Notes under the pieces: generated by a model
Seen by the model: only the letters and a program-made list of their open reading frames with translations
Told to the model about the DNA's origin: nothing
Databases searched by the model: none
Position numbers and translations under genes: made by a program
Origin: an uncultured archaeon
Lineage (GTDB): Archaea; Asgardarchaeota; Thorarchaeia; Thorarchaeales; CAZPUN01
DNA: 64,000 nucleotides
Direction of reading: 5' to 3'
NCBI GenBank assembly: GCA_964589775.1
Contig: CAZPUN010000021.1
Span: 53,768 to 117,767, forward strand
Shown here: piece by piece, positions 5,265-61,722 of the stretch
Position numbering within the stretch: position 1 is the stretch's first letter
Layout of the letters: each line of letters starts with the position of its first letter

Positions 5265-6617
5265 TCATAGCATCATACTCATCATATCTATTTGTGAATA
5301 CAGTTCCTTGATAAGGTTGAAAGATGAAACAAGGACTCTTTCTTTTGCAATTACTGTTAGATTAATATTGATCTCTTTATTTTTTGAGATGATTTCTAGA
5401 TTTATTAGTGGTGCAATATTTTTTAGATTGTCTTGTATTAAATAACTACTCGATAATCGTTCAATTACTTTTTCGTTTGTTCCCTGCCACTGAAAGATCT
5501 TTTTTATTTCCATTGATGATATATATGTTGATTCAGGTAACTCTGAAAGTTGAACACATTTGATTATAAATTCTGGAATATTAGACACTATACCTTTCGC
5601 AGTTGCTATAATTTGTGAATTATCCATTTTGAATGTAATTGTTCTTAAGGCTCCAAAATCGGTGCTAAAAATAATTTCATCGTAATTTGATTCATCGGGC
5701 CTTAGTAGAACTTTGCCATATATCTTTATTGAAAAGATCTCATCATTTATGTTTGGTATTTCTGAAAATCTTGTATATTGTAATTTTTTCGGTTCTTGAT
5801 ATTTCTGAGTTTTTTGTTTTTGTTCAACAGATTCTTTCGTATCTTTTTGATGGGTTGAAATCTCTTGTGTATATTCTATGTTTTGTTTTTTGGCTGATGT
5901 TTTTGTTTCTTCTGAACTTGGTGTAGCTGGTAAAATCACACCGCGTTCTTTCAATAATTTTTCATAACTTTCTGACAATGACCGTGATATTCCTTCTATT
6001 AATCTTTCTACTGAAAACATATATTTTCGGTTGAATTCTGCTTTAAAATACACTTTTGTTTCATTTGATCGTACATTTATTATTATATGTCTAAATTCAT
6101 TTGTGGAGCTAAGTACAAAATCAATCATGCCATAGTTAATAGATTCTAAAAATTCTTTACAAGATGACTTTACTTTTAATGTGTCTGAACTTTGTATATT
6201 CATTTCATATTTGTAAAATTTGCGCGGTGGATCTTCGTATCGTTTATCATATATGTTCAAAGATATTTCACTTGAATTGCATACAGGCAAATATTTCTTC
6301 ATCATTCTATGAAAACTATTTGTCGTTGTAATATTTACTATACCGAATGAACCATCTATGAATAAGAGTCCAGACTTTATTGTTTTACTATATTTAGGTA
6401 CAAACTCGTACGCATTTGCCTTATTTTTCTTAATTGAACCTCCCCATTCTCTAAAATATTCTTTTATTATCTCCTCAGAACTATTCATATTTGTGATGGG
6501 ACCACTATCTTCAATTAATTTCTTTCGGACAAATCCAAAACCTACCAATAAACCTGCAATTATTAAATTCACATCAAAACATAGTACAATCATTTCCCGC
6601 ACCATACCATTACCCAT
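5265..6617 (-). CDS. Hypothetical membrane-anchored protein (450 aa)
   Basis: There is one N-terminal hydrophobic helix (LCFDVNLIIAGLLVGFGFV), followed by a long soluble region with a K/E/Q-rich low-complexity linker. I recognise no family. Confidence 0.4.
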   Translation of the reverse strand: MGNGMVREMIVLCFDVNLIIAGLLVGFGFVRKKLIEDSGPITNMNSSEEIIKEYFREWGGSIKKNKANAYEFVPKYSKTIKSGLLFIDGSFGIVNITTTNSFHRMMKKYLPVCNSSEISLNIYDKRYEDPPRKFYKYEMNIQSSDTLKVKSSCKEFLESINYGMIDFVLSSTNEFRHIIINVRSNETKVYFKAEFNRKYMFSVERLIEGISRSLSESYEKLLKERGVILPATPSSEETKTSAKKQNIEYTQEISTHQKDTKESVEQKQKTQKYQEPKKLQYTRFSEIPNINDEIFSIKIYGKVLLRPDESNYDEIIFSTDFGALRTITFKMDNSQIIATAKGIVSNIPEFIIKCVQLSELPESTYISSMEIKKIFQWQGTNEKVIERLSSSYLIQDNLKNIAPLINLEIISKNKEININLTVIAKERVLVSSFNLIKELYSQIDMMSMML

Positions 6618-10073: not shown

Positions 10074-11063
10074 ATGCTAGAACTAGAATCCGGAATTTTT
10101 CCTCATGTACTTTCTACTGGGTTCATTATGACTTATACAAAAAATAAATGCATGGCAAATTGTGCGTTTTGTCCTCAGGCACGTGAGAGTCATGGACGCG
10201 CAGATATGCTTTCACGGATTACGTGGCCTGATTATCCTTTCTCAATAGTACTTCAGAGAATCGTAGAAAAACATAAGAAGTTCAGCCGATTTTGTATTCA
10301 GACTATTAACTATCCGACAGTTATTGAGGATAGTATTGAAATTATATCAAATCTTCGCGCAAAGACAAAAAAACCAATTTCCATCGCTATTCATGCGATC
10401 ACTATTGATGATATGAAACGGCTAAAAGAAGCTGGAGCCACGAATATTTCAATTCCTCTAGATGGTGCGACAGAGGAAGTTTTCGAACGAATAAAAGGTT
10501 CTAAGACCGGAAGTCCATATCGTTGGGCTAGTCATAATAAAGCAATTGATGATGCATTAAAAGTATTTGGCATAAATAATGTTTCGACACACATTATTGT
10601 TGGACTTGGCGAGACTGAACAAGATGTTGTTAAACTAATTGATCAAATGTACAATAAAGGAGTTCGTGTAGCTCTTTTTGCATTTACTCCAATAAGAGGG
10701 ACTGCTCTTGAAAAAATGTCTCAGCCCGACCTTGGAAGCTATCGGCGGATCCAACTAATTCGCTACCTGCTTGAACGAAAATATATTTCATATTCTAACA
10801 TTTCCTTCACAAATGGAAAGATTGCGAATATCGATATTAACCTTGAAAAATTGTATCACGCGTTAAAAGTTGGCCAACCGTTTCGAGTATCTGGCTGCCC
10901 CGGCTGTAATCGCCCATATTATAACGAGCGTCCGCTTGGTCCTATGTATAATTATCATCGTCGTCTTTCTAAAGACGAAATTAATAAGGCGATTAATGAT
11001 TTAGAAATCAAAATAAATGGTGATAAGATTGGACAGATTTCGTTTAATACCATTCTCAGTTAA
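10074..11063 (+). CDS. Radical SAM protein, candidate LipS-type lipoyl synthase component
   Basis: The CxxxCxxC motif CMANCAFC is present. It sits immediately upstream of a split lipoate-protein ligase. I preferred the ATG at 10074 over the TTG at 10038. Confidence 0.55.
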   Translation: MLELESGIFPHVLSTGFIMTYTKNKCMANCAFCPQARESHGRADMLSRITWPDYPFSIVLQRIVEKHKKFSRFCIQTINYPTVIEDSIEIISNLRAKTKKPISIAIHAITIDDMKRLKEAGATNISIPLDGATEEVFERIKGSKTGSPYRWASHNKAIDDALKVFGINNVSTHIIVGLGETEQDVVKLIDQMYNKGVRVALFAFTPIRGTALEKMSQPDLGSYRRIQLIRYLLERKYISYSNISFTNGKIANIDINLEKLYHALKVGQPFRVSGCPGCNRPYYNERPLGPMYNYHRRLSKDEINKAINDLEIKINGDKIGQISFNTILS

Positions 11064-12185: not shown

Positions 12186-12764
12186 GTGAGCATACACTCT
12201 CCTCTCCGTCGTACAAGGACTGGCGAACGTACCGTAACCTTGGTGGGTCCTTATGATCTAATTGAGTTATTTGATGTATTTGGAAATATATCGGAATCTG
12301 ATGAGCAGTGGCATTCGCTAAGAATAAAGTATGCTTCTAAATTGAATGATAAAAAGGCAAAACAATGCCTTGCTGAAGCGCGACGAATAGCTCATAAGAA
12401 AAAGAATGGAAGCGATGAACTAAAAGCAAAGCAGGCGTTATTATTACTATCACTGTATTTGATTATTGAGACCTATTATGAGCATAACGAAAATTATTAT
12501 ATGTTAGGAAAATCAATCGCTGAAGAATTAGATGCCTTAAAAAAACTGGGACAGATTGATGTCTTTCACAGTCGTCTTCAACATTATATCGAGCGATTCT
12601 TAGCAGAAACTATTCATAGTGGTACTGAAAAAATCACGCCGGCAATAATTTCTTTTGTTGAGAGTTGTAGAAAATACAACATTCCCATTGAATCTCCTGA
12701 ACTACTCGCATTATATGAAACATTCACAGATCCCAGCAAAACAATTAAGAAAAATGTTATCTAA
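12186..12764 (+). CDS. Hypothetical protein (192 aa, GTG start)
   Basis: Predicted helical. No family recognised. Confidence 0.35.
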   Translation: MSIHSPLRRTRTGERTVTLVGPYDLIELFDVFGNISESDEQWHSLRIKYASKLNDKKAKQCLAEARRIAHKKKNGSDELKAKQALLLLSLYLIIETYYEHNENYYMLGKSIAEELDALKKLGQIDVFHSRLQHYIERFLAETIHSGTEKITPAIISFVESCRKYNIPIESPELLALYETFTDPSKTIKKNVI

Positions 12765-48395: not shown

Positions 48396-48441
48396 TTGCA
48401 TCGAAATATTTAAGTAGTTTTTACTACAAAAAACATGTAAT

Positions 48442-51113: not shown

Positions 51114-52811
51114 TTATTTTTTGATTCTTTTTTCCTTTATAATTTTTAATAATTCTTTAAGTCCATTTTCAATGGACGGCCCTGTAATAATCGAAGTTTC
51201 TGTAAATAATGCTGGTAGTCCATTTTCGGCCTCTCTAGCTTTTGATATCAATTTGATTTTCTCTAATGCTTCGTCCTTTGAAACCGGTGCCTCGCCCATA
51301 TCCTGATCATTCGCAGTGATAATGCGTAAATCAATTTTGTTTCCAACAATAAGAATTGGTGTTTCAGGCCCTAACATTTGATTTATTTCTTTAACCCAAT
51401 AGTCAATACTCTGATAGCTCCATCGATCTACAACTGAATATACGATTATCGCTGCTTCTGCATCTGCATAGAATTTTCCACGTGTAATCTTTATTTTCTT
51501 AGCTTCATTCAAAGGCCAAATTTCTGTATCAAAAGCAACGTCCTTCAATGGAATTTCTTTTGTAAGAATTCTCATTGTGCTTAATGATGTTATTTGTTCT
51601 TCTTGTTCGTTGAACCCTATATTTTCAAATAGTGAACTCATTCCTACGTCATCTTCACCTAATACAACAACTTTAACTTTGTATTTGGGTAGTTCTCTTA
51701 CAACTAATGTCTCTACTTCTTCTTTTTCTGTGGTTGGCGTCTCTGTAGGTGCTTCCACTTTGGTTTCTATGGCGGGTGCTTCCACTTTGGTTTCTATGGC
51801 GGGTGCTTCCACTTTGGTTTCATTTGATACAATTTCGGGTTTAGAGGCTGATTCAGGAGTTATCTGTTTTTCATCACTATCATATTTTGTAGTCATCTGA
51901 TCAATAATTCTCAATGTGTATGAAACTAGATCTTCTTCTGTTGTACTTTGTTTAATTGTTTCCTCCATAATTTGCTCTAGGACTTCTTCATCAGTTTTTT
52001 CAATTTGGGGTATTATAATTTTTCTTTCATGTGTAGACTCTTCCACTTTAGTTTCTGTGGTAGGTGCTTCTACTTTAGTTTCTACGGGAGGGCCTTCCAC
52101 TTTAGTTTCTGTGGTGGGTGCTTCCACTTTGGTTTCTGTGGTGGGTGCTTCCACTTTGGTTTCTGTGGTGGGTGCTTCCACTTTGGTTTCTATGGCGGGT
52201 GCTTCCACTTTGGTTTCTATGGCGGGTGCTTCCACTTTGGTTTCTATGGCGGGTGCTTCCACTTTAGTTTCTGTGGCGGGTGCTTCCACTTTAGTTTCTA
52301 CGGGAGGGACTTCCACTTTGGTTTCTGTGGTGGGTGTTTTCACTTTAGTTTCTATGGCGGGTGCTTCTACTTTGGTTTCGCTTTTTCTTGTAGGGATCAC
52401 TTCTTCAATTATGTCACTAATTATTTTTGACTTATCAATAATCGGCTTTTTATCTGATTCTGGTATTGGCTTAGAAGTAGGTTCTATCGCTTCTGTTTGA
52501 GTTTCCTTAATTTCAGGTTTGATTGGTTCGACGGACCCCCAGATATCATCTGACTCAGGCTCTGGTTTAATTTCCTCTACTTCTACGAAGATTTTCTTAG
52601 CCTTTGGTATTCCAATCTTTAGCATGACTTCTTCAACTAATGCCGGCGGCAGTATCTTTCCTTTATAATAAAAGAAACGTTCTAGTTCTTTTCGGACTTG
52701 ATCAAATGACTTTCCTTTTACTGGAATTGTTTTTATTAATCTGCCTTTATCCTTAATGCGTATTGTTTTTTGCTCCAATGTTATTCCAAATGTTGTTCCT
52801 GGGACAATCAA
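51114..52811 (-). CDS. Multidomain protein with an N-terminal domain, a long (E-T-K-V-E-A-P-A/T-I/T)n tandem-repeat linker and a C-terminal Ras-like GTPase domain with a degenerate P-loop
   Basis: The C-terminal domain has KVKVVVLGEDDVGMSSL (G1 with Met in place of Lys), VGNKIDL (G4) and FTETSII (G5). The middle carries at least 16 copies of a 9-aa repeat. Confidence 0.6.
   Translation of the reverse strand: MIVPGTTFGITLEQKTIRIKDKGRLIKTIPVKGKSFDQVRKELERFFYYKGKILPPALVEEVMLKIGIPKAKKIFVEVEEIKPEPESDDIWGSVEPIKPEIKETQTEAIEPTSKPIPESDKKPIIDKSKIISDIIEEVIPTRKSETKVEAPAIETKVKTPTTETKVEVPPVETKVEAPATETKVEAPAIETKVEAPAIETKVEAPAIETKVEAPTTETKVEAPTTETKVEAPTTETKVEGPPVETKVEAPTTETKVEESTHERKIIIPQIEKTDEEVLEQIMEETIKQSTTEEDLVSYTLRIIDQMTTKYDSDEKQITPESASKPEIVSNETKVEAPAIETKVEAPAIETKVEAPTETPTTEKEEVETLVVRELPKYKVKVVVLGEDDVGMSSLFENIGFNEQEEQITSLSTMRILTKEIPLKDVAFDTEIWPLNEAKKIKITRGKFYADAEAAIIVYSVVDRWSYQSIDYWVKEINQMLGPETPILIVGNKIDLRIITANDQDMGEAPVSKDEALEKIKLISKAREAENGLPALFTETSIITGPSIENGLKELLKIIKEKRIKK
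51745..51830. repeat. 27-nt in-frame tandem repeat, block 1 (about 3 units)
   Basis: GGTGCTTCCACTTTGGTTTCTATGGCG is repeated head-to-tail. It encodes AIETKVEAP on the minus strand. Confidence 0.85.
52035..52385. repeat. 27-nt in-frame tandem repeat, block 2 (about 13 units)
   Basis: It is the same unit with wobble variants (TCTATGGCG / TCTGTGGTG / TCTACGGGA). Confidence 0.85.
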
Positions 52812-52915: not shown

Positions 52916-54175
52916 ATGGATAAGTACGAAAAATTAAAGTCCGGCGAGCGTGTGATTGTAGTTTCATTCATAGTTACAGTTTGTGTATTTATAGTTGAGA
53001 TAATTGTGGGAATTCTCAGTAATAGTGTTTCACTTACTGCTGATGCTATTCATACAGCAACAGACTCGTTAGGTATCATTGCTGTATTTTTCGGTTTAAA
53101 AATTGCACAACGTAAGCCTGATGAACGATTCCCGTATGGATATTACAAAGCTGAAAATATCGGCGCATTAGTTGTTGCCTTTATAATCTTATTAACTGCT
53201 GTGGATATTTTGGTTGATTCAATGGATGCAATTTTACATCCGCGAACATTAAGTATTCCTTTAGTAGCTTTGACCGTAGCAGCTGTTGGTACTGTTATTT
53301 CCTACCTTCTTGCGTATTATAAAGGAAAAACCGGAAGAAAAATAAATTCACAATCTCTTATTGCTGAAGCTGAACATTCTCGGATTGATGTTTTTGCAAC
53401 AGCTCTTGTGTTTATTGGTATTCTAGTTTCATATCTTGGATTTCCAATTGTAGAAGCCATGGCTGGTTTTATTGTTTCTATTTTTGTTGCTATTTCAGGT
53501 TTAGAAATTGCAAAAGATGCACTTTTTGTTCTTATGGATGCATGTACAGATTCTGAGTTACCTATACAGCTAAAGGAATTTATAGAATCACATCCCAAAG
53601 TTGATGGAGTACACTCTATAAAGATTCGTCGTGCAGGGCCATTTCTTTTTGTTGATGCACATTTAGAGCTTGCACCTACATATTCTGTTAATTTTGCGCA
53701 TGAAATCTGTGATGAACTTGAAGAACGTATTAAAGAAAAATTCAACAATATTGAATCTGTAAACTTTCACGTCGAACCTGGTACTGGGGATTCTAAGGTC
53801 ATTGCAGTCCCTGTAGAATCAAGAGACGTAAGCTTAACAGATAGAATTTCATCGCATTTTTCAAGAGCACCATATTTTTTGATCATTCGAGTAAAGCATA
53901 AGGAGATAGTTGAAACAAAAATTGTTGAGAATCCTGCAAAAGATATATCCTCCAAAAAGGGATTAAAAATCGCTCATGTATTAGTAGATGCTGGGGTTAC
54001 TGTTGTAATTACAAGGAATATCGGTGAAATTACATATTATGCATTAAACAGTCTTGGAATACTTATTTTTAGGACTGATGATGATGTTGTAGAAAATGTC
54101 GTAAAATTATTTTTGCAAGGAAAATTAAAATATTATGAGCTCGCAATATCTGAAAAATTTGAAAAAAATAAGTAA
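52916..54175 (+). CDS. Cation diffusion facilitator (CDF) transporter fused to a C-terminal NifX/NafY-like domain
   Basis: The six-TM core has the HTATDSLG and HSRID motifs of CDF proteins. The C-terminal 110 aa (KVIAVPVESRDVSLTDRISSHFSRAPYFLII...VITRNIGEITYYALNSLGIL) resembles the 39434 protein. Confidence 0.7.
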   Translation: MDKYEKLKSGERVIVVSFIVTVCVFIVEIIVGILSNSVSLTADAIHTATDSLGIIAVFFGLKIAQRKPDERFPYGYYKAENIGALVVAFIILLTAVDILVDSMDAILHPRTLSIPLVALTVAAVGTVISYLLAYYKGKTGRKINSQSLIAEAEHSRIDVFATALVFIGILVSYLGFPIVEAMAGFIVSIFVAISGLEIAKDALFVLMDACTDSELPIQLKEFIESHPKVDGVHSIKIRRAGPFLFVDAHLELAPTYSVNFAHEICDELEERIKEKFNNIESVNFHVEPGTGDSKVIAVPVESRDVSLTDRISSHFSRAPYFLIIRVKHKEIVETKIVENPAKDISSKKGLKIAHVLVDAGVTVVITRNIGEITYYALNSLGILIFRTDDDVVENVVKLFLQGKLKYYELAISEKFEKNK

Positions 54176-54404
54176 TTGCCGATAGATCCCCTTCTACCAG
54201 TTTTTCTATCTTTCTATTTTTCCCGCAATATAATTCTTAACAGAAATTTATATAAGTAATAGCTTTCAATAGTAAATTAATATTTATTAACAAATTTATA
54301 CACTTGGGGGATTAGATATTCTATCTCAAAAAAAGGATTTCGAGAAAGACTCAATTGTACAACATTTAAAACAATTTGGATTATCAACATATGAAGCGGC
54401 TGTC

Positions 54405-56528
54405 ATGTCCATATTATTATATTCTGATAAGCCGCTTTCTGGGAATGAAGTTGCAAAGCAAATTGGAATTACGCGTTATTATGTTTTTGAAATTTTGAAA
54501 AAATTATCTGAACGTGACTATATTACAGTAACTCCAACTCGTCCAAAATTATATTCTTTTTCAACATCCATTTTACAAGATAAAATTTCAGAAACGGAAT
54601 TATACTATGATAATTTAATTAAATCTGTTCAACGGAACGGTCCATTCGTGGTTCTCTCTGAATTAAAAGACTTTAATACAAATGCTGAGCGTATATATGT
54701 TGCATTAAAGGGAAGAAATCATACTGTACAATCTATTTCCAAAGTTACTGGAATTCCCCATTATACTGTGCGACAAATATTGAAACAATTTGTACAATAT
54801 AATTTAGTTCGTACCCGAAGATCAAATAAATCAATTCTTTATTTTCTTTATCCGTCAGAAATAGCAAGTGAAAAATTAGTTGAGTATCTTACTGAACTAA
54901 AAGAGAAACGAATTAAAACTCTATATGCTGCATACAATAAAATTGTAAGTCACGTTAAGAATAAAGAGCGAATCCTTGATGAAGAAATCAAAATAATTGA
55001 AGTAACCGGGCTCGAAAATGTAATAAAGCGCGTGCGTTTCATCATTCAAAAGTCTTCCAAAATCTTAAGTATTAGAGGTAAAAGATTATTTGACGCAATT
55101 TTGAATAGCCGAAACAAAAAAGAGGTCTTTTATGAGTTCAACTTGTATCTTGATGAGGTCACTCGGTTTGTTAGAAGAAATGGAGAACTCAATATTATAT
55201 TCAGTAATTATTATTTGAATGCAGAAAAATTCGGGAAGATGTTTAATGTTTTGGCGAAGTATAAAGATGTTATTGATGCTAGATTATTTAATGGACCGAC
55301 ATATGATATTGATATTATTGATGGCAAAACGATTATTGAATACTTGGGTGGAACCCCATTCAAGGCGATCATAATAAATCATCCTCAATTTGTAAACGCA
55401 CAAGTTGGTATGTTTAATTTATTATGGGAAAAAAGTCAAAATTTCTATTATGCGTATGAAAGATCATCTTCAGACATATTTAATAATGATTATGAACTAT
55501 TAATTGAATCTCTCCCAGTATTACGTGGTGAAAATGGAATTAATGTTGTAAACTCCTTCAATAACGCCATAAAAATTTGGTTTTATCTTGTAAAAAATGC
55601 AAAACAGCGAATTTATCATGTGCGTTATTATCCCGAAAATAAGGAATTTAATATGACGTATTTTCAAGATGCATACTCCCTTATCTATAATAAGGGTCGT
55701 GAGAATATTGATATTAAAATAATTAGTAACTTTCCGAATTATTTGATTAAAAAGATCGATAATGACCTCCGCTTACAAAACTTAAAAGTTGAATCTGTAA
55801 AAACGCACATTCATTATAATTTAAATAAGCACATTGGTTTTGATATCATAGATGATTTCGTATTAATTATATTTCATCCTGATGATTATTCGAAATTTGA
55901 AGACTATAAATTAATTATTGTACGTGATGATATACTACTTAATTTCATGATCCATGACTTTTTGGCTATGTGGCGTAATTCTTATGACTCAAAGTTTCTT
56001 ATATTTCCATACGTAAACAATCTTAATATGAAAAAAGAATTAATGCAAGTTCTAGATAATGATTTATTATCAAAACTTAAATCTTCAATTCCGATTCAAT
56101 TGGGTAAGATCGGCTTAACTGGATTCATAAAATTATTTTTAATTGCTGAAAAATCTATTTCTGTGATTGCACCTTGTAAATCTGACTTTGCTTCTGCATT
56201 TGGTATATATTCATTTGATGAGCTCGCCACATATATTTCAAAAACTCCTGAAGAAATACGGATAATTGTAACTGATGATGAATTAATGCCTTATATAAAG
56301 TCTTTTACCGATAATGTAAAGACTAATCTGAAACTTCACAAATTTACTTCTAAAATAGGTCCATTAACAAGCTATATTATAATTGATAATAAATATGTTC
56401 TTCAAATTTGGAAATCTGAAATCGATTTACTATATGATTATATTATCTATAAGCTTCCTCAATTTGTGAATCGTGCTATTCAACATTTTGAGTATGCATG
56501 GACTAACAGTGAAGAAGTCATTATCTAA
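54405..56528 (+). CDS. Large TrmB-like regulator with two tandem N-terminal winged-helix domains and a roughly 550-aa repeat-containing C-terminal region
   Basis: The first HTH is LSGNEVAKQIGITRYYVFEILKKLSERDYITVTPTRPKLY and the second is ERIYVALKGRNHTVQSISKVTGIPHYTVRQILKQFVQYNLVRT. The frame is open upstream to 54291 and encodes the first TrmB helix, but there is no canonical start. Confidence 0.55.
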   Translation: MSILLYSDKPLSGNEVAKQIGITRYYVFEILKKLSERDYITVTPTRPKLYSFSTSILQDKISETELYYDNLIKSVQRNGPFVVLSELKDFNTNAERIYVALKGRNHTVQSISKVTGIPHYTVRQILKQFVQYNLVRTRRSNKSILYFLYPSEIASEKLVEYLTELKEKRIKTLYAAYNKIVSHVKNKERILDEEIKIIEVTGLENVIKRVRFIIQKSSKILSIRGKRLFDAILNSRNKKEVFYEFNLYLDEVTRFVRRNGELNIIFSNYYLNAEKFGKMFNVLAKYKDVIDARLFNGPTYDIDIIDGKTIIEYLGGTPFKAIIINHPQFVNAQVGMFNLLWEKSQNFYYAYERSSSDIFNNDYELLIESLPVLRGENGINVVNSFNNAIKIWFYLVKNAKQRIYHVRYYPENKEFNMTYFQDAYSLIYNKGRENIDIKIISNFPNYLIKKIDNDLRLQNLKVESVKTHIHYNLNKHIGFDIIDDFVLIIFHPDDYSKFEDYKLIIVRDDILLNFMIHDFLAMWRNSYDSKFLIFPYVNNLNMKKELMQVLDNDLLSKLKSSIPIQLGKIGLTGFIKLFLIAEKSISVIAPCKSDFASAFGIYSFDELATYISKTPEEIRIIVTDDELMPYIKSFTDNVKTNLKLHKFTSKIGPLTSYIIIDNKYVLQIWKSEIDLLYDYIIYKLPQFVNRAIQHFEYAWTNSEEVII

Positions 56529-57397: not shown

Positions 57398-58846
57398 ATG
57401 CCTCTTAAAGATGATGAACCCTTAGAAACTGATGAGAAAATGATTTCTGATCTACTTGATGAACTTGAAGTTCCTGAAGATTTGAAAGCTGAAATTAAAA
57501 CCGGAAAGATAAAGCAAAAATTCATCAAAACTGAAAGTGTAGATGTTGCACGATACAAATTGGATCTTGATAAAGCATCCGGGAAGCTAAGGAGCTCTCC
57601 AGAGCCATATCTTGATATTTCTAAAAATCTCAATAAGCTTAGTGAGCATCTAGAAGTGGATATTGTTCCGGTTCTGTTGAAATTCTATGTTACACTTAAG
57701 GGTGAACTATCTGTTGTAAAAGAATCGATATTGGCAAGAGCAAAATCTCGTGCAAAAATGTCACTTATTAAAATGTTTATTGATAAGGATCTTTCATATA
57801 TCATCGATGATGAATTTTCAAATATTGAATCCAAATCTGGTAGTGAAGTTTTAGAGCCGGTTCTTAATCAAGTACGTGATGTTGCAGATAAACTAAAGAA
57901 GTATGATCGTGAAATCAGAAATAATGTAGCTGAACAACAAAGAACTATAGAAGCATATATTGGGACCGTTTTAAGTGTAGTTGATGATATTTCTAAGTTA
58001 GTTGAAAATATTGATGTAGTTGAGCTACAAAAGCAGCTTAGAGAACGCGATGGTATTATAGAAGCTCTTCGTACGGAATTATCGACTAAAAATATGCAGC
58101 TAAAGGCTCGGGAAAAAGAAATTGAAAATCTCAAAGCAAGAATAAATGAGCTACAAGCAAGAGTTGATGAATTAGAAGAAAATATGGCATCTGGGGAAGC
58201 AATTACTCCAGGTTATGTGTCTGAATTGCGTGAAAAAGTTCGTGCTTTAGAAGCTTCTCGTTCGTTACTTATGAGTAAATATGAAGATGCTTTAAAGCAC
58301 ATTGAAGAATCTGAATCAGAAATCAAAGAATTATCTGATGCTTTAGCCCATAAGAAAATTGAACTTGAAGATGCTTTGTATAGAATTCGCTCATTGGAAA
58401 GTGAGATTGAGGAATTACGTAAGCGACTTGCAAAAGTTACAGAACTTGAAGACGAAATAAAGAAGCTAAAAAGTAGAGATCTAACTCATCTTCTAGAACT
58501 AAAGGAACAAGATCTTAATGTTATGAAAATACAACTAGAACGTGCAACAAAGGAGCGCGACGAATATAAGCAAGAACTCGATGAGTTAAAGGCACGTATG
58601 GAAAAGTTAGACTTGCTAATTGAGCGTGATGCAAAAACCATGGCGTATAAAGTATTAGAAAAACAAAAGCAATCTACCATTCGTGATTTGGCTCGACCCC
58701 TGGGTGTATCCCCGTCCACAGTTCGAACATGGATGAATGAATTTCAGACTCTTGGCTTAGTAAAGTATATTGATGATAATACTGTTGAAATTATTGAGGA
58801 ACCCTTACCTGCTGCAGAAGATGAAGAAAATAAAGAAAGTACGTGA
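57398..58846 (+). CDS. Coiled-coil protein with a C-terminal winged-helix domain (paralog B)
   Basis: Heptad-rich ELEEL, LKAR and IEELRK sequence. The C-terminus is STIRDLARPLGVSPSTVRTWMNEFQTLGLVKYIDDN. It shares Y.IDDEF with paralog A. Confidence 0.55.
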   Translation: MPLKDDEPLETDEKMISDLLDELEVPEDLKAEIKTGKIKQKFIKTESVDVARYKLDLDKASGKLRSSPEPYLDISKNLNKLSEHLEVDIVPVLLKFYVTLKGELSVVKESILARAKSRAKMSLIKMFIDKDLSYIIDDEFSNIESKSGSEVLEPVLNQVRDVADKLKKYDREIRNNVAEQQRTIEAYIGTVLSVVDDISKLVENIDVVELQKQLRERDGIIEALRTELSTKNMQLKAREKEIENLKARINELQARVDELEENMASGEAITPGYVSELREKVRALEASRSLLMSKYEDALKHIEESESEIKELSDALAHKKIELEDALYRIRSLESEIEELRKRLAKVTELEDEIKKLKSRDLTHLLELKEQDLNVMKIQLERATKERDEYKQELDELKARMEKLDLLIERDAKTMAYKVLEKQKQSTIRDLARPLGVSPSTVRTWMNEFQTLGLVKYIDDNTVEIIEEPLPAAEDEENKEST

Positions 58847-58858
58847 GGGTATGCATAA

Positions 58859-59935
58859 TTGAATATTCAGCGAAATAAGATACTCTATGCAGATCCCACA
58901 CAACTTCGAGAAGCCGAAATGTATGAGTCATTACCAGATGGCTCTGTAAAATGTAACTTATGTGCTAGGCGGTGTATCATAAAACCTGGTCGCGTAGGTA
59001 TTTGCCGTGTTCGAGCTAATATTGACGGAAAATTGTATTCGCTAAATTATGGACGATTAAATGGTATGTATCCAGATCCTATAGAGAAAAAACCTCTATT
59101 TCATTTTGCACCCGGTTCGATTACTTTTTCCGTTAGCACACCTGGCTGTAATTTCCGGTGTCAATTCTGTCAAAATCATCACACGGTATATGAACCAATT
59201 GACCATACATCGTTTATACCTCCAGAAGTCATTGTATCTATGGCACAACGGAGCAATTCTCAAGGAATAAGTTATACCTATTCTGAGCCTACTGTATTTT
59301 TTGAAACCGTGCTAGATACAAGTAAAATCGCTCATGAACTTGGACTTTACAACACATTAGTCACGAATGGCTATATGACTCCTGAAGCTATTGATTTATT
59401 AGCTCCTTATATTGATGCAGTAAGTGTGGATTTTAAGGGCTCCGGTAATACATTCTTCTATCGGCGATATATGGGTGTTCCATATCCTGATCCTATTTTT
59501 GATGCATTATTGGCGTACAAAAAACATGGAATTCATATTGAAATTACAAATTTGATATTACCTCAGATAGGTGATTATCCGGAAGATACTAAGCGAATTG
59601 CTCGTTGGGTTGCCGATAATCTTGGTGAAAATACACCATTTCATATAACTGCATTTCATCCTGCTTTTAAAATTCGTAATATTCCTCGGACATCATCAAA
59701 ATTACTCTTGAAGCATTTAGAAATTGTACGTAATGAGGGGTTACAATTTGTATATTCCGGAAATATTCCCGGTATGAGTACCGAAAGTACTTATTGTCCT
59801 AATTGTAATGAACTTGTGATTAGCAGATATAGTGTTTTCTTAAGTTCTAATAAAGCTACTGAGGATGGTCGATGTCCCAAGTGTGGTGCAGATCTTAATA
59901 TCGCAGGACTAAACTGGATGCGGAGGAGTACATAA
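58859..59935 (+). CDS. AmmeMemoRadiSam-system-type radical SAM enzyme (PflX-like)
   Basis: The N-terminal CNLCARRC...GICRVR zinc-ribbon-like motif is followed by GCNFRCQFCQN (CxxxCxxC). A C-terminal CPNC...CPKCG is present. It has a TTG start. Confidence 0.7.
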   Translation: MNIQRNKILYADPTQLREAEMYESLPDGSVKCNLCARRCIIKPGRVGICRVRANIDGKLYSLNYGRLNGMYPDPIEKKPLFHFAPGSITFSVSTPGCNFRCQFCQNHHTVYEPIDHTSFIPPEVIVSMAQRSNSQGISYTYSEPTVFFETVLDTSKIAHELGLYNTLVTNGYMTPEAIDLLAPYIDAVSVDFKGSGNTFFYRRYMGVPYPDPIFDALLAYKKHGIHIEITNLILPQIGDYPEDTKRIARWVADNLGENTPFHITAFHPAFKIRNIPRTSSKLLLKHLEIVRNEGLQFVYSGNIPGMSTESTYCPNCNELVISRYSVFLSSNKATEDGRCPKCGADLNIAGLNWMRRST

Positions 59936-60828: not shown

Positions 60829-60894
60829 CTTTATAATTAATTTTATATTGTTAAAAAATAACTAATATAAGATGGTATTGTATCAGGTGGGGTA

Positions 60895-61722
60895 TTGGAA
60901 TTGGACAGTCCTCGATCAAATATACAGTTTATAAGTATAATCCGAAAATTCGGTGGGGAATCGCTTATTTCAGTTGAATATAGTAAAAATTCGGATATCG
61001 ATGAAGATTTAATCTCTGCATTTTTACAGGCATTTTCTATTTTTGCGGGGGCAGGCGATTCTCAAGATGGACTAAGTTCGATCGAAAAAGATGGATTTAA
61101 CTATATTATTGAAACCACTGAAAAAATTCTAGGCGTAATTGTCTTAACTAAGATTGAAGATGAGCAAAATATTCGAAATAAGTTAAAGGAGTTATGTAAA
61201 GAATTTGAGGATATTTATGCATATCATTTAGATAAATGGACTGGTAATATATCTCATTTCAGAGAATTTCTAATATATATAGTTTCTAAATTTCCACTTG
61301 CCAAAATTGATTATGATCTTGTTCCGGTAAAATCTATAGATGGCGCAACAAAAACTGTAGGTCAAACTGCTGAAATTATTGAAACTGTTAAAAAGATGAT
61401 TAACGGGAAGCGAACCGTTTTGGACATAATAAACGCATCAGAAATTCCTGAAGAATTTGTAATCGGCGCCTTATCTTTAATGAAGCGATTTGGTGAAATT
61501 AAGTTTAAGCGGTCTATAAAAGAGGAAGATAAACCGCGAATTGTTGCACCAATTGGACCACAACTCAGAAGATTTTACGCCGATGTGGTTGACCAGTTAT
61601 CCGAGTTATGTACTGGTGAAATGACGATTAAAGAAATATCTTCCAAGTTGGGTATTGAATTTAATACTACTAAGTTTATATTAGAAAAATTAGCTGATTC
61701 AGGATATGTTGAATTCTTATAA
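60895..61722 (+). CDS. Roadblock/longin-like N-terminal domain fused to two winged-helix-like domains
   Basis: ESLISVEYS / EDLISAFLQAFSIFAGA / GFNYIIETTEKILGVIVLTK follows a beta-alpha-beta-beta pattern like Roadblock/LC7. wH-like segments are TVLDIINASEIPEEFVIGALSLMKRFGEI and IKEISSKLGIEFNTTKFILEKLADSGYVE. Confidence 0.4.
   Translation: MELDSPRSNIQFISIIRKFGGESLISVEYSKNSDIDEDLISAFLQAFSIFAGAGDSQDGLSSIEKDGFNYIIETTEKILGVIVLTKIEDEQNIRNKLKELCKEFEDIYAYHLDKWTGNISHFREFLIYIVSKFPLAKIDYDLVPVKSIDGATKTVGQTAEIIETVKKMINGKRTVLDIINASEIPEEFVIGALSLMKRFGEIKFKRSIKEEDKPRIVAPIGPQLRRFYADVVDQLSELCTGEMTIKEISSKLGIEFNTTKFILEKLADSGYVEFL

Follow-up and report, generated by a model that had tools for sequence, protein, structure and literature searches.

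A likely mis-annotated N-terminus and a probable AUU start codon in a TrmB-like regulator gene of a Thorarchaeales archaeon

Comparison with described start codons and regulators

AUU start codons behind a Shine-Dalgarno (SD) sequence are established in bacteria, where infC (encoding IF3) and pcnB of Escherichia coli are examples. Here we describe a gene that may follow the same pattern in an uncultured archaeon of the Thorarchaeales (Asgardarchaeota). It lies on a stretch of 64,000 nucleotides (contig CAZPUN010000021.1, positions 53,768 to 117,767, of assembly GCA_964589775.1), called the window below and used for all coordinates, and its annotated start is the ATG at 54405. Like infC and pcnB, it has a conserved coding sequence (CDS) without AUG, GUG or UUG at its proposed beginning, an AUU (54318) behind a putative SD element, and a proposed weak start that would limit the amount of a regulatory protein. 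Unlike them, it belongs to an archaeon with the eukaryote-type factors aIF1, aIF1A and aIF2, shows no evident autoregulatory loop of the IF3 type, is known here from sequence alone, and has an AUU that is conserved in just two sampled lineages.

Initiation at a codon one base off AUG has also been described in an archaeon. Such near-cognate sites made up ~30% of the putative alternative initiation sites in ribosome profiling of Haloferax volcanii, although the authors set them aside as possible false positives (PMC7261190). The sites of H. volcanii are mostly alternative, whereas in the gene described here the near-cognate codon would be the sole start of a conserved protein. With respect to its product, the gene resembles those of the TrmB-family archaeal regulators, in that the N-terminal winged helix-turn-helix (wHTH) domain matches PF01978 from position 1 if the codons upstream of the ATG are included. 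It differs from that family in having no significant match to the sugar-binding C-terminal domain; a second wHTH domain and a region of ~550 amino acids are found instead.

A third likeness is to the mis-annotated N-termini of metagenome-assembled genomes (MAGs). The public product P0001 (707 amino acids) begins at the first ATG, which truncates the domain. In a sister lineage the annotated proteins start elsewhere, P0002 at an ATG peculiar to one strain and P0019 at a TTG directly next to the SD element. Mis-annotated genes usually offer a canonical alternative start, but this gene offers none. We regard it as a probable instance of this known phenomenon, with a likely mis-annotated N-terminus and a probable AUU start, to which an ordinary lesion of one nucleotide is a serious rival. 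Most likely the gene encodes a functional TrmB-like winged-helix regulator, with a true CDS that starts upstream of the annotated ATG and, again most likely, at ATT 54318.

The coding sequence ahead of the annotated ATG

The coding features of the locus are as follows.

54405 to 54407, plus strand: annotated start codon ATG, which opens the public 707-amino-acid product P0001
54318 to 56528, plus strand: proposed full CDS of 736 codons plus stop; the open reading frame (ORF) is intact, and the overall ratio of non-synonymous to synonymous substitution (dN/dS) against the sister is ~0.15
54318 to 54404, plus strand: 29 codons; their translation, ILSQKKDFEKDSIVQHLKQFGLSTYEAAV, comprises the N-terminal tail and the first helix of a TrmB-type wHTH domain as well as the beginning of its second helix
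54328 to 54334, plus strand: run of seven A's (A7), incidental, within the codons CAA AAA AAG; the sister has CAA AAG AAA

Upstream, a TAA at 54288-54290 closes the reading frame of the 54405 gene, which is open from 54291 on. Translation of 54291-54404 in this frame gives QIYTLGGLDILSQKKDFEKDSIVQHLKQFGLSTYEAAV, followed by MSILLY, and the 38 codons include no ATG, GTG or TTG. Both observations agree with an earlier, sequence-only reading of the window, according to which the first helix of the regulator is encoded before the first ATG and no canonical in-frame start lies between the TAA and that ATG; the pattern is not a product of chance. The same reading took the upstream peptide for the beginning of a TrmB winged helix, and the profile search bears this out. 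The extended protein matches Pfam TrmB (PF01978) with 61.9 bits (cut-off 25.6) over profile positions 1-63, while the precomputed TrmB match of the annotated 707-amino-acid form is merely 'faint'. Because the alignment begins at the L of LKQF (54366) with profile position 1, and Met 54405 corresponds to about position 14, the first ATG lies inside the winged-helix domain.

The sole close relative is a sister lineage with 68-69% identity. It was sampled three times, as the Logan contig L001 (encoding P0002), as L005 (NCBI GCA_053940065.1, encoding P0019) and as the Logan contig L006. L005 is fully syntenic with the window over 47.4-62.2 kb, and the neighbours at the sister locus comprise an Arf/Ras/Roc GTPase, a Roadblock/LC7 protein and GGR. 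When window and L001 were compared codon by codon (Nei-Gojobori), 16 synonymous and 2 non-synonymous changes were counted in the 29 codons at 54318-54404, which are missing from the public annotation. The proportion of synonymous sites that differ (pS) is ~0.9, i.e. saturated, and that of non-synonymous sites (pN) is 0.029; the corresponding values for the rest of the gene are 0.655 and 0.20. Under neutrality, at least 16 synonymous changes among 18 have a binomial P = 7e-10. The first 12 codons (54318-54353) alone show 8 synonymous and 0 non-synonymous changes (pN 0; P ~9e-7). Protein-level constraint is stronger in 54318-54404 than anywhere else in the gene, and the excess of synonymous changes implies that the 29 codons were translated for essentially the whole divergence of the two lineages. 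The conserved coding sequence under selection reaches further 5' than any ATG, GTG or TTG in the frame, and no such codon occurs back to the TAA at 54288. Relaxed constraint, internal stops and frameshifts, as expected of a pseudogene, were not seen in the 736 codons; neither the overall dN/dS nor the pN of the disputed segment points that way.

Not only the codons but also the relatives speak against the annotated start. In the four-way DNA alignment the counterpart of ATG 54405 is ATT (Ile) in L001, L005 and L006. An alignment of all N-termini showed that each of the 17 detectable relatives carries the upstream helix (xxLxxFGLSxxEAxV) and that none starts at the equivalent of Met 54405, where I, L, V, Y, C or E is found. 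The sequence-only reading had proposed a comparison with orthologs and would have been overturned by orthologs that begin at this Met and lack the helix; the relatives show the opposite. Since the sister has Ile at this position, none of the other relatives has Met there, and no match of more than 3 nt to the complement of the 16S rRNA lies upstream, ATG 54405 most likely encodes an internal Met.

The leader and the choice of start codon

Five further features belong to the leader and the proposed start.

54236 to 54274, plus strand: promoter-like block CTTAACAGAAATTTATATAAGTAATAGCTTTCAATAGTA, of which 38 of 39 bases are identical to L001, L005 and L006
54304 to 54315, plus strand: TTG GGG GAT TAG; the TTG is the annotated start of the sister, here in another frame and followed after three codons by TAG 54313
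54306 to 54310, plus strand: GGGGG run, proposed SD element, in an island (TTGGGGGA) identical in all four sequences
54311 to 54317, plus strand: spacer ATTAGAT of 7 nt; that of the sister has 8 nt (ACACTATA) and is almost wholly different
54318 to 54320, plus strand: ATT, proposed initiation codon (AUU), in frame and invariant in the window, L001, L005 and L006

ATT 54318 marks the 5' limit of conservation at the protein level. Downstream of it nearly all changes are in third positions; directly upstream the frame of the alignment is lost through the 1-nt length difference, and similarity is lost with it, except that TTGGGGGA is kept between two diverged flanks. The segment 54311-54317, which varies in both sequence and length, looks like a spacer. 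The two strands of the 64-kb window together contain just 15 copies of GGGGG, and GGG is the least-used Gly codon (8% of Gly codons). Because of this rarity the conserved G-run is better explained as an SD element than as codons.

This genome does use SD sites. A contiguous match of at least 5 nt to the complement of the canonical 16S 3' end was found at 25 of 61 first-candidate starts, compared with 38 of 314 internal ATG, GTG or TTG codons, a clear enrichment. Among genes with a match the aligned spacing has its mode at 8, with 24 of 38 genes at 7-9. The aligned spacing from GGGGG to ATT is 6-7 nt in the window and 7-8 nt in the sister, the ATT itself following 7 nt after the G-run. In other words, a near-cognate codon stands at the limit of conservation and is preceded by a putative ribosome-binding site at the usual spacing of the genome. 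Rfam gave no match in the window, and RNA folding around the start found no structure beyond that of shuffled controls (z = -0.8 in the window, z = -1.7 in the sister).

The region further upstream contains a candidate promoter. The intergenic sequence around the 54236-54274 block is just 58% identical overall. The block contains TTTATATAA at 54247-54255, which resembles a TFB-recognition element (BRE) with TATA box and is followed by AATAG-N6-AATAG; archaeal promoter architecture would make this a promoter. Between block and G-run there are ~30 diverged bases, with a length difference of 10-11 nt between window and sister. The block may represent a promoter plus an autoregulatory operator. 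Its counterpart in L005 is at ~5918-5956, and the promoter of the other TrmB gene of the window (48400-48420, GAAATATTTAAGTAGT) resembles its first half.

A possible course of events can be put together from these elements. The transcript would begin ~25 nt downstream of the TATA-like box at 54247-54255, and its GGGGG element would pair with CCUCC of the 16S rRNA 3' end. The small subunit would thereby be placed with the AUU, 7 nt downstream, in the P site, where initiator tRNA would decode it as Met. The product would have 736 amino acids, begin M/I-LSQKKDFEKDSIVQHLKQFGLSTYEAAVMSILLY and contain a complete first wHTH domain, and the weak near-cognate start might keep the level of the regulator low. 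We infer the actual use of the AUU, the transcript start site and the regulatory purpose of a weak start from this arrangement. That SD-led initiation at AUU 54318 is used, either ancestrally or as a rescue, seems to us somewhat better than an even bet. The sequence-only reading had listed a non-canonical initiator (ATT or ATA) among its explanations; it is the ATT behind the conserved GGGGG that fits best, and the explanations of that reading are thus supported in part. A stronger version, in which AUU behind the G-rich SD is the ancestral, conserved start of both lineages and the TTG and ATG annotated in the sister are artefacts, is possible but rather doubtful.

It might be objected that the sister has canonical codons available. 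The first one in frame is a TTG directly next to the G-run (TTG GGG GAC ACT ATA ATT TTA), so that P0019 begins MGDTIILSQ; the invariant ATT, present in four sequences from two lineages, is thus accompanied in the sister by an in-frame TTG four codons upstream. The ATG further upstream which opens P0002 (L001 1973-1975) is a strain polymorphism, being ATA in L005 and L006, and this rules it out as an ancestral start. One gene caller took this strain-variable ATG/ATA codon as the start of P0002, and the public sister products of one and the same gene consequently differ in their annotated N-termini (P0002 is a fragment of 603 amino acids, P0019 has 748).

Two other syntenic genes provide precedents. 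In the radical-SAM gene (58859; window 58837-58861, L005 ~10560-10590) a 1-nt spacer indel (CAT-AATTG vs CATGAATTG) shifts the annotated ATG of the sister, which abuts GAGGGT, into another frame in the window (ATG CAT AAT TGA). A TTG ~9-10 nt after GAGGGT is common to both lineages, and the annotated start of the sister is probably too long. In the 60895 gene (window 60880-60903, L005 ~12600-12630) the upstream SD AGGTGGGG is conserved, the spacers differ by a 2-nt indel and the annotated GTG of the sister lies inside the SD. Because spacer indels and longest-ORF starts inside or against SDs recur in this genome pair, the TTG of the sister is plausibly not the real start of the regulator gene and may be a longest-ORF artefact.

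Several points nevertheless weigh against initiation at the AUU. Such starts are rare, which makes for a low prior, and the close comparison comprises two independent lineages, the window with a second assembly (L002) on the one hand and L001, L005 and L006 on the other. The in-frame TTG of the sister abuts the G-run, and TTG GGG GAY would encode M-G-D with a synonymous C/T difference. Loss of a single base from the window (GAT TTA to GAT TA) would explain the missing start and the TAG together. There is a chance of ~10% that an ATT would fall in frame and at a fitting distance from the G-run by coincidence, ATT making up 5% of codons. Moreover, aIF1 has been reported to discriminate against non-canonical starts (PMC6237735), and according to a review SDs are apparently not prevalent in one cultured Lokiarchaeon (PMC7531240), although in the window they are enriched.

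The deletion just mentioned leads to the most serious competitor, a recent and genuine loss of the start codon, which we consider unlikely but not negligible. An ancestral TTG start at the G-run would have been thrown out of frame by deletion of one nucleotide in codon 4 of the window lineage. The gene would now be silent, or would yield from AUG 54405 a truncated protein whose first wHTH domain lacks its first helix and half of its second. The sister reads TTG GGG GAC ACT ATA ATT in frame and the window TTG GGG GAT TAG out of frame; one T inserted after 54312 produces TTG GGG GAT TTA GAT ATT CTA and restores LGDLDILSQKKDF. A single deletion in 54311-54317 would account for the change of frame as well as for TAG 54313, and the change from I to M at 54405 can be read as a compensating new start. 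The lesion would, however, have to be very recent, since the 29 codons left untranslated are the most conserved part of the gene. The remaining ORF is intact and constrained, ATG 54405 has no SD, and a protein starting there would lose 13 of the 68 profile positions of the DNA-binding domain. The 7-8 nt between G-run and ATT are also almost all different between the lineages, which is more typical of a spacer than of codons. If the deletion is real, it either happened too recently for decay to appear in the 29 codons, or translation proceeds from an AUU that lies 7 nt behind a fortuitous SD. Of the truncated or pseudogenised regulator considered in the sequence-only reading, what stands is solely such a very recent event with its lesion in 54311-54317; a lesion at the A7 run does not fit, and the intact ORF and its dN/dS speak against decay.

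The missing base could instead be an error of the MAG consensus, with TTG 54304 as the real start. One added base in 54311-54317 gives back a canonical start and a sister-like N-terminus, and the source is a metagenome assembly. This is improbable, as the second assembly (ENA ERZ27262694 k141_80022, L002) is base-identical across 54150-54420, even if it possibly derives from the same reads; the site (TT) is not a long homopolymer, and comparable differences in spacer length occur at other genes of the two lineages. In the window the disputed stretch, within 54290-54340, reads GGGGGATTAGATATT. Initiation at another non-canonical codon has a slightly smaller claim. ATT 54294, AAG 54333 and ATT 54354 are all near-cognate codons in the open frame, and a start at ATT 54354 would give an N-terminus close in length to that of some relatives, e.g. 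P0004 and P0006. None of the three has an SD at a usable distance, though, the sequence around ATT 54294 has no counterpart in the sister, and with a start at 54333 or 54354 there would be no explanation for the perfect conservation of codons 54318-54353 (8 synonymous, 0 non-synonymous changes, P ~9e-7).

Recoding offers a further explanation. Translation might begin at TTG 54304, with the peptidyl-tRNA-Asp hopping 5 nt over the UAG, from GAU 54310-54312 to GAU 54315-54317, into the main frame. Short stop-hopping is known from E. coli, and T4 gene 60 illustrates the take-off and landing logic. Matched GAT codons do flank the TAG (GAT TA GAT, 54310-54317) directly 3' of a G-rich, SD-like run, but the arrangement is not conserved, the sister having no stop there, and such hops are normally inefficient and the RNA structure is not above shuffled controls. 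GAT TA GAT also follows automatically from a 1-nt deletion and is most likely a by-product of the length change; a hop is very improbable. Least probable of all, to the point of being nearly negligible, is an event at the A7 run, be it a frameshift, a homopolymer error or programmed slippage at A AAA AAG, or a disruption by a repeat or insertion. A AAA AAG is formally a slippery heptamer of the dnaX type. The heptamer is absent from the sister (CAA AAG AAA G), where the run is interrupted (CAAAAGAAAG), and a single frame is conserved across it, on which grounds a programmed -1 frameshift was rejected. The peptide ILSQKK|DFEKDS crosses the run in one frame in both window and sister. Nor would an indel at the run join the gene to a canonical start: frame 0 has none after TAA 54288, frame 2 none after TAA 54278, and frame 1 just TTG 54304, followed by TAG 54313. 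The sequence-only reading had correctly seen the run, although it placed it at 54329-54335, one base too high, and its proposal of a frameshift or error there fails on these observations. It had also noted a weak resemblance of the region to dispersed repeats and hence an insertion-mediated disruption. GGGGATTAGATAT has, at up to 3 mismatches, 25 matches against 24.9 expected from shuffled sequence, AAAAAAAGGATTTCG has 5 against 9.2, and blastn of 54176-54345 against the window gave chance-level matches only (<=14 nt), so that this idea finds no backing.

If translation does start at AUU 54318, the public record is 29 residues short and lacks the first helix of the DNA-binding domain, which would mislead domain calls and structure prediction. 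The gene would then provide a clean case, backed by comparative evidence, of near-cognate initiation with the help of an SD in an Asgard archaeon, a group in which translation initiation has hardly been studied experimentally. Should the AUU be ancestral, a near-cognate start would have been evolutionarily stable under the eukaryotic-type factors aIF1, aIF1A and aIF2, and output could depend on the stringency of start codon selection, as with the AUU of bacterial infC and with eukaryotic near-cognate starts. If a 1-nt deletion is the cause, the locus shows an ordinary lesion or a MAG error. Gene callers that accept no starts other than ATG, GTG and TTG can cut real proteins short, and the true 5' end can be located from the pattern of synonymous and non-synonymous changes relative to a sister genome.

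The protein family and its neighbourhood

The protein begins with two wHTH domains in tandem. Behind them comes a long, uncharacterised region of ~550 amino acids at the C-terminus, in which a match to DUF7436 stays below threshold. The sugar-binding effector domain found at the C-terminus of TrmB (PF11495) gave no match in this protein at E <= 0.1, and judged by these profiles the protein is TrmB-like in its DNA-binding domain only. Comparison with solved structures produced a weak match to the wHTH domain of MJ223 (1KU9, E = 0.005), aligned from LKQF on, and nothing beyond the Pfam result.

The family is tiny. A word-indexed search of 5.8 billion proteins returned 3 matches, and an exhaustive HMMER search of 1.84 billion representatives returned 16 proteins, with one cluster only above 40% identity. 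Two GTDB genome scans found no further orthologs, and a metagenome scan recovered just relatives with 30% identity. One homolog with 22% identity bears the NCBI name Heimdallarchaeota. In 4 of 16 relatives (P0006, P0009, P0011 and P0014) the TrmB-type wHTH N-terminus is fused to a C-terminal small GTPase of the Ras/Roc type (Pfam Ras, E = 1e-25 to 1e-27), a fusion of DNA-binding and GTPase domains.

A small-GTPase-like region is also present near the gene itself. On the minus strand, 51114-52811 of the window encodes a protein of 565 amino acids with such a region at its C-terminus, and the sister ortholog matches Arf/Ras/Roc. The protein contains a long run of near-perfect octapeptide repeats (ETKVEAPA/T).

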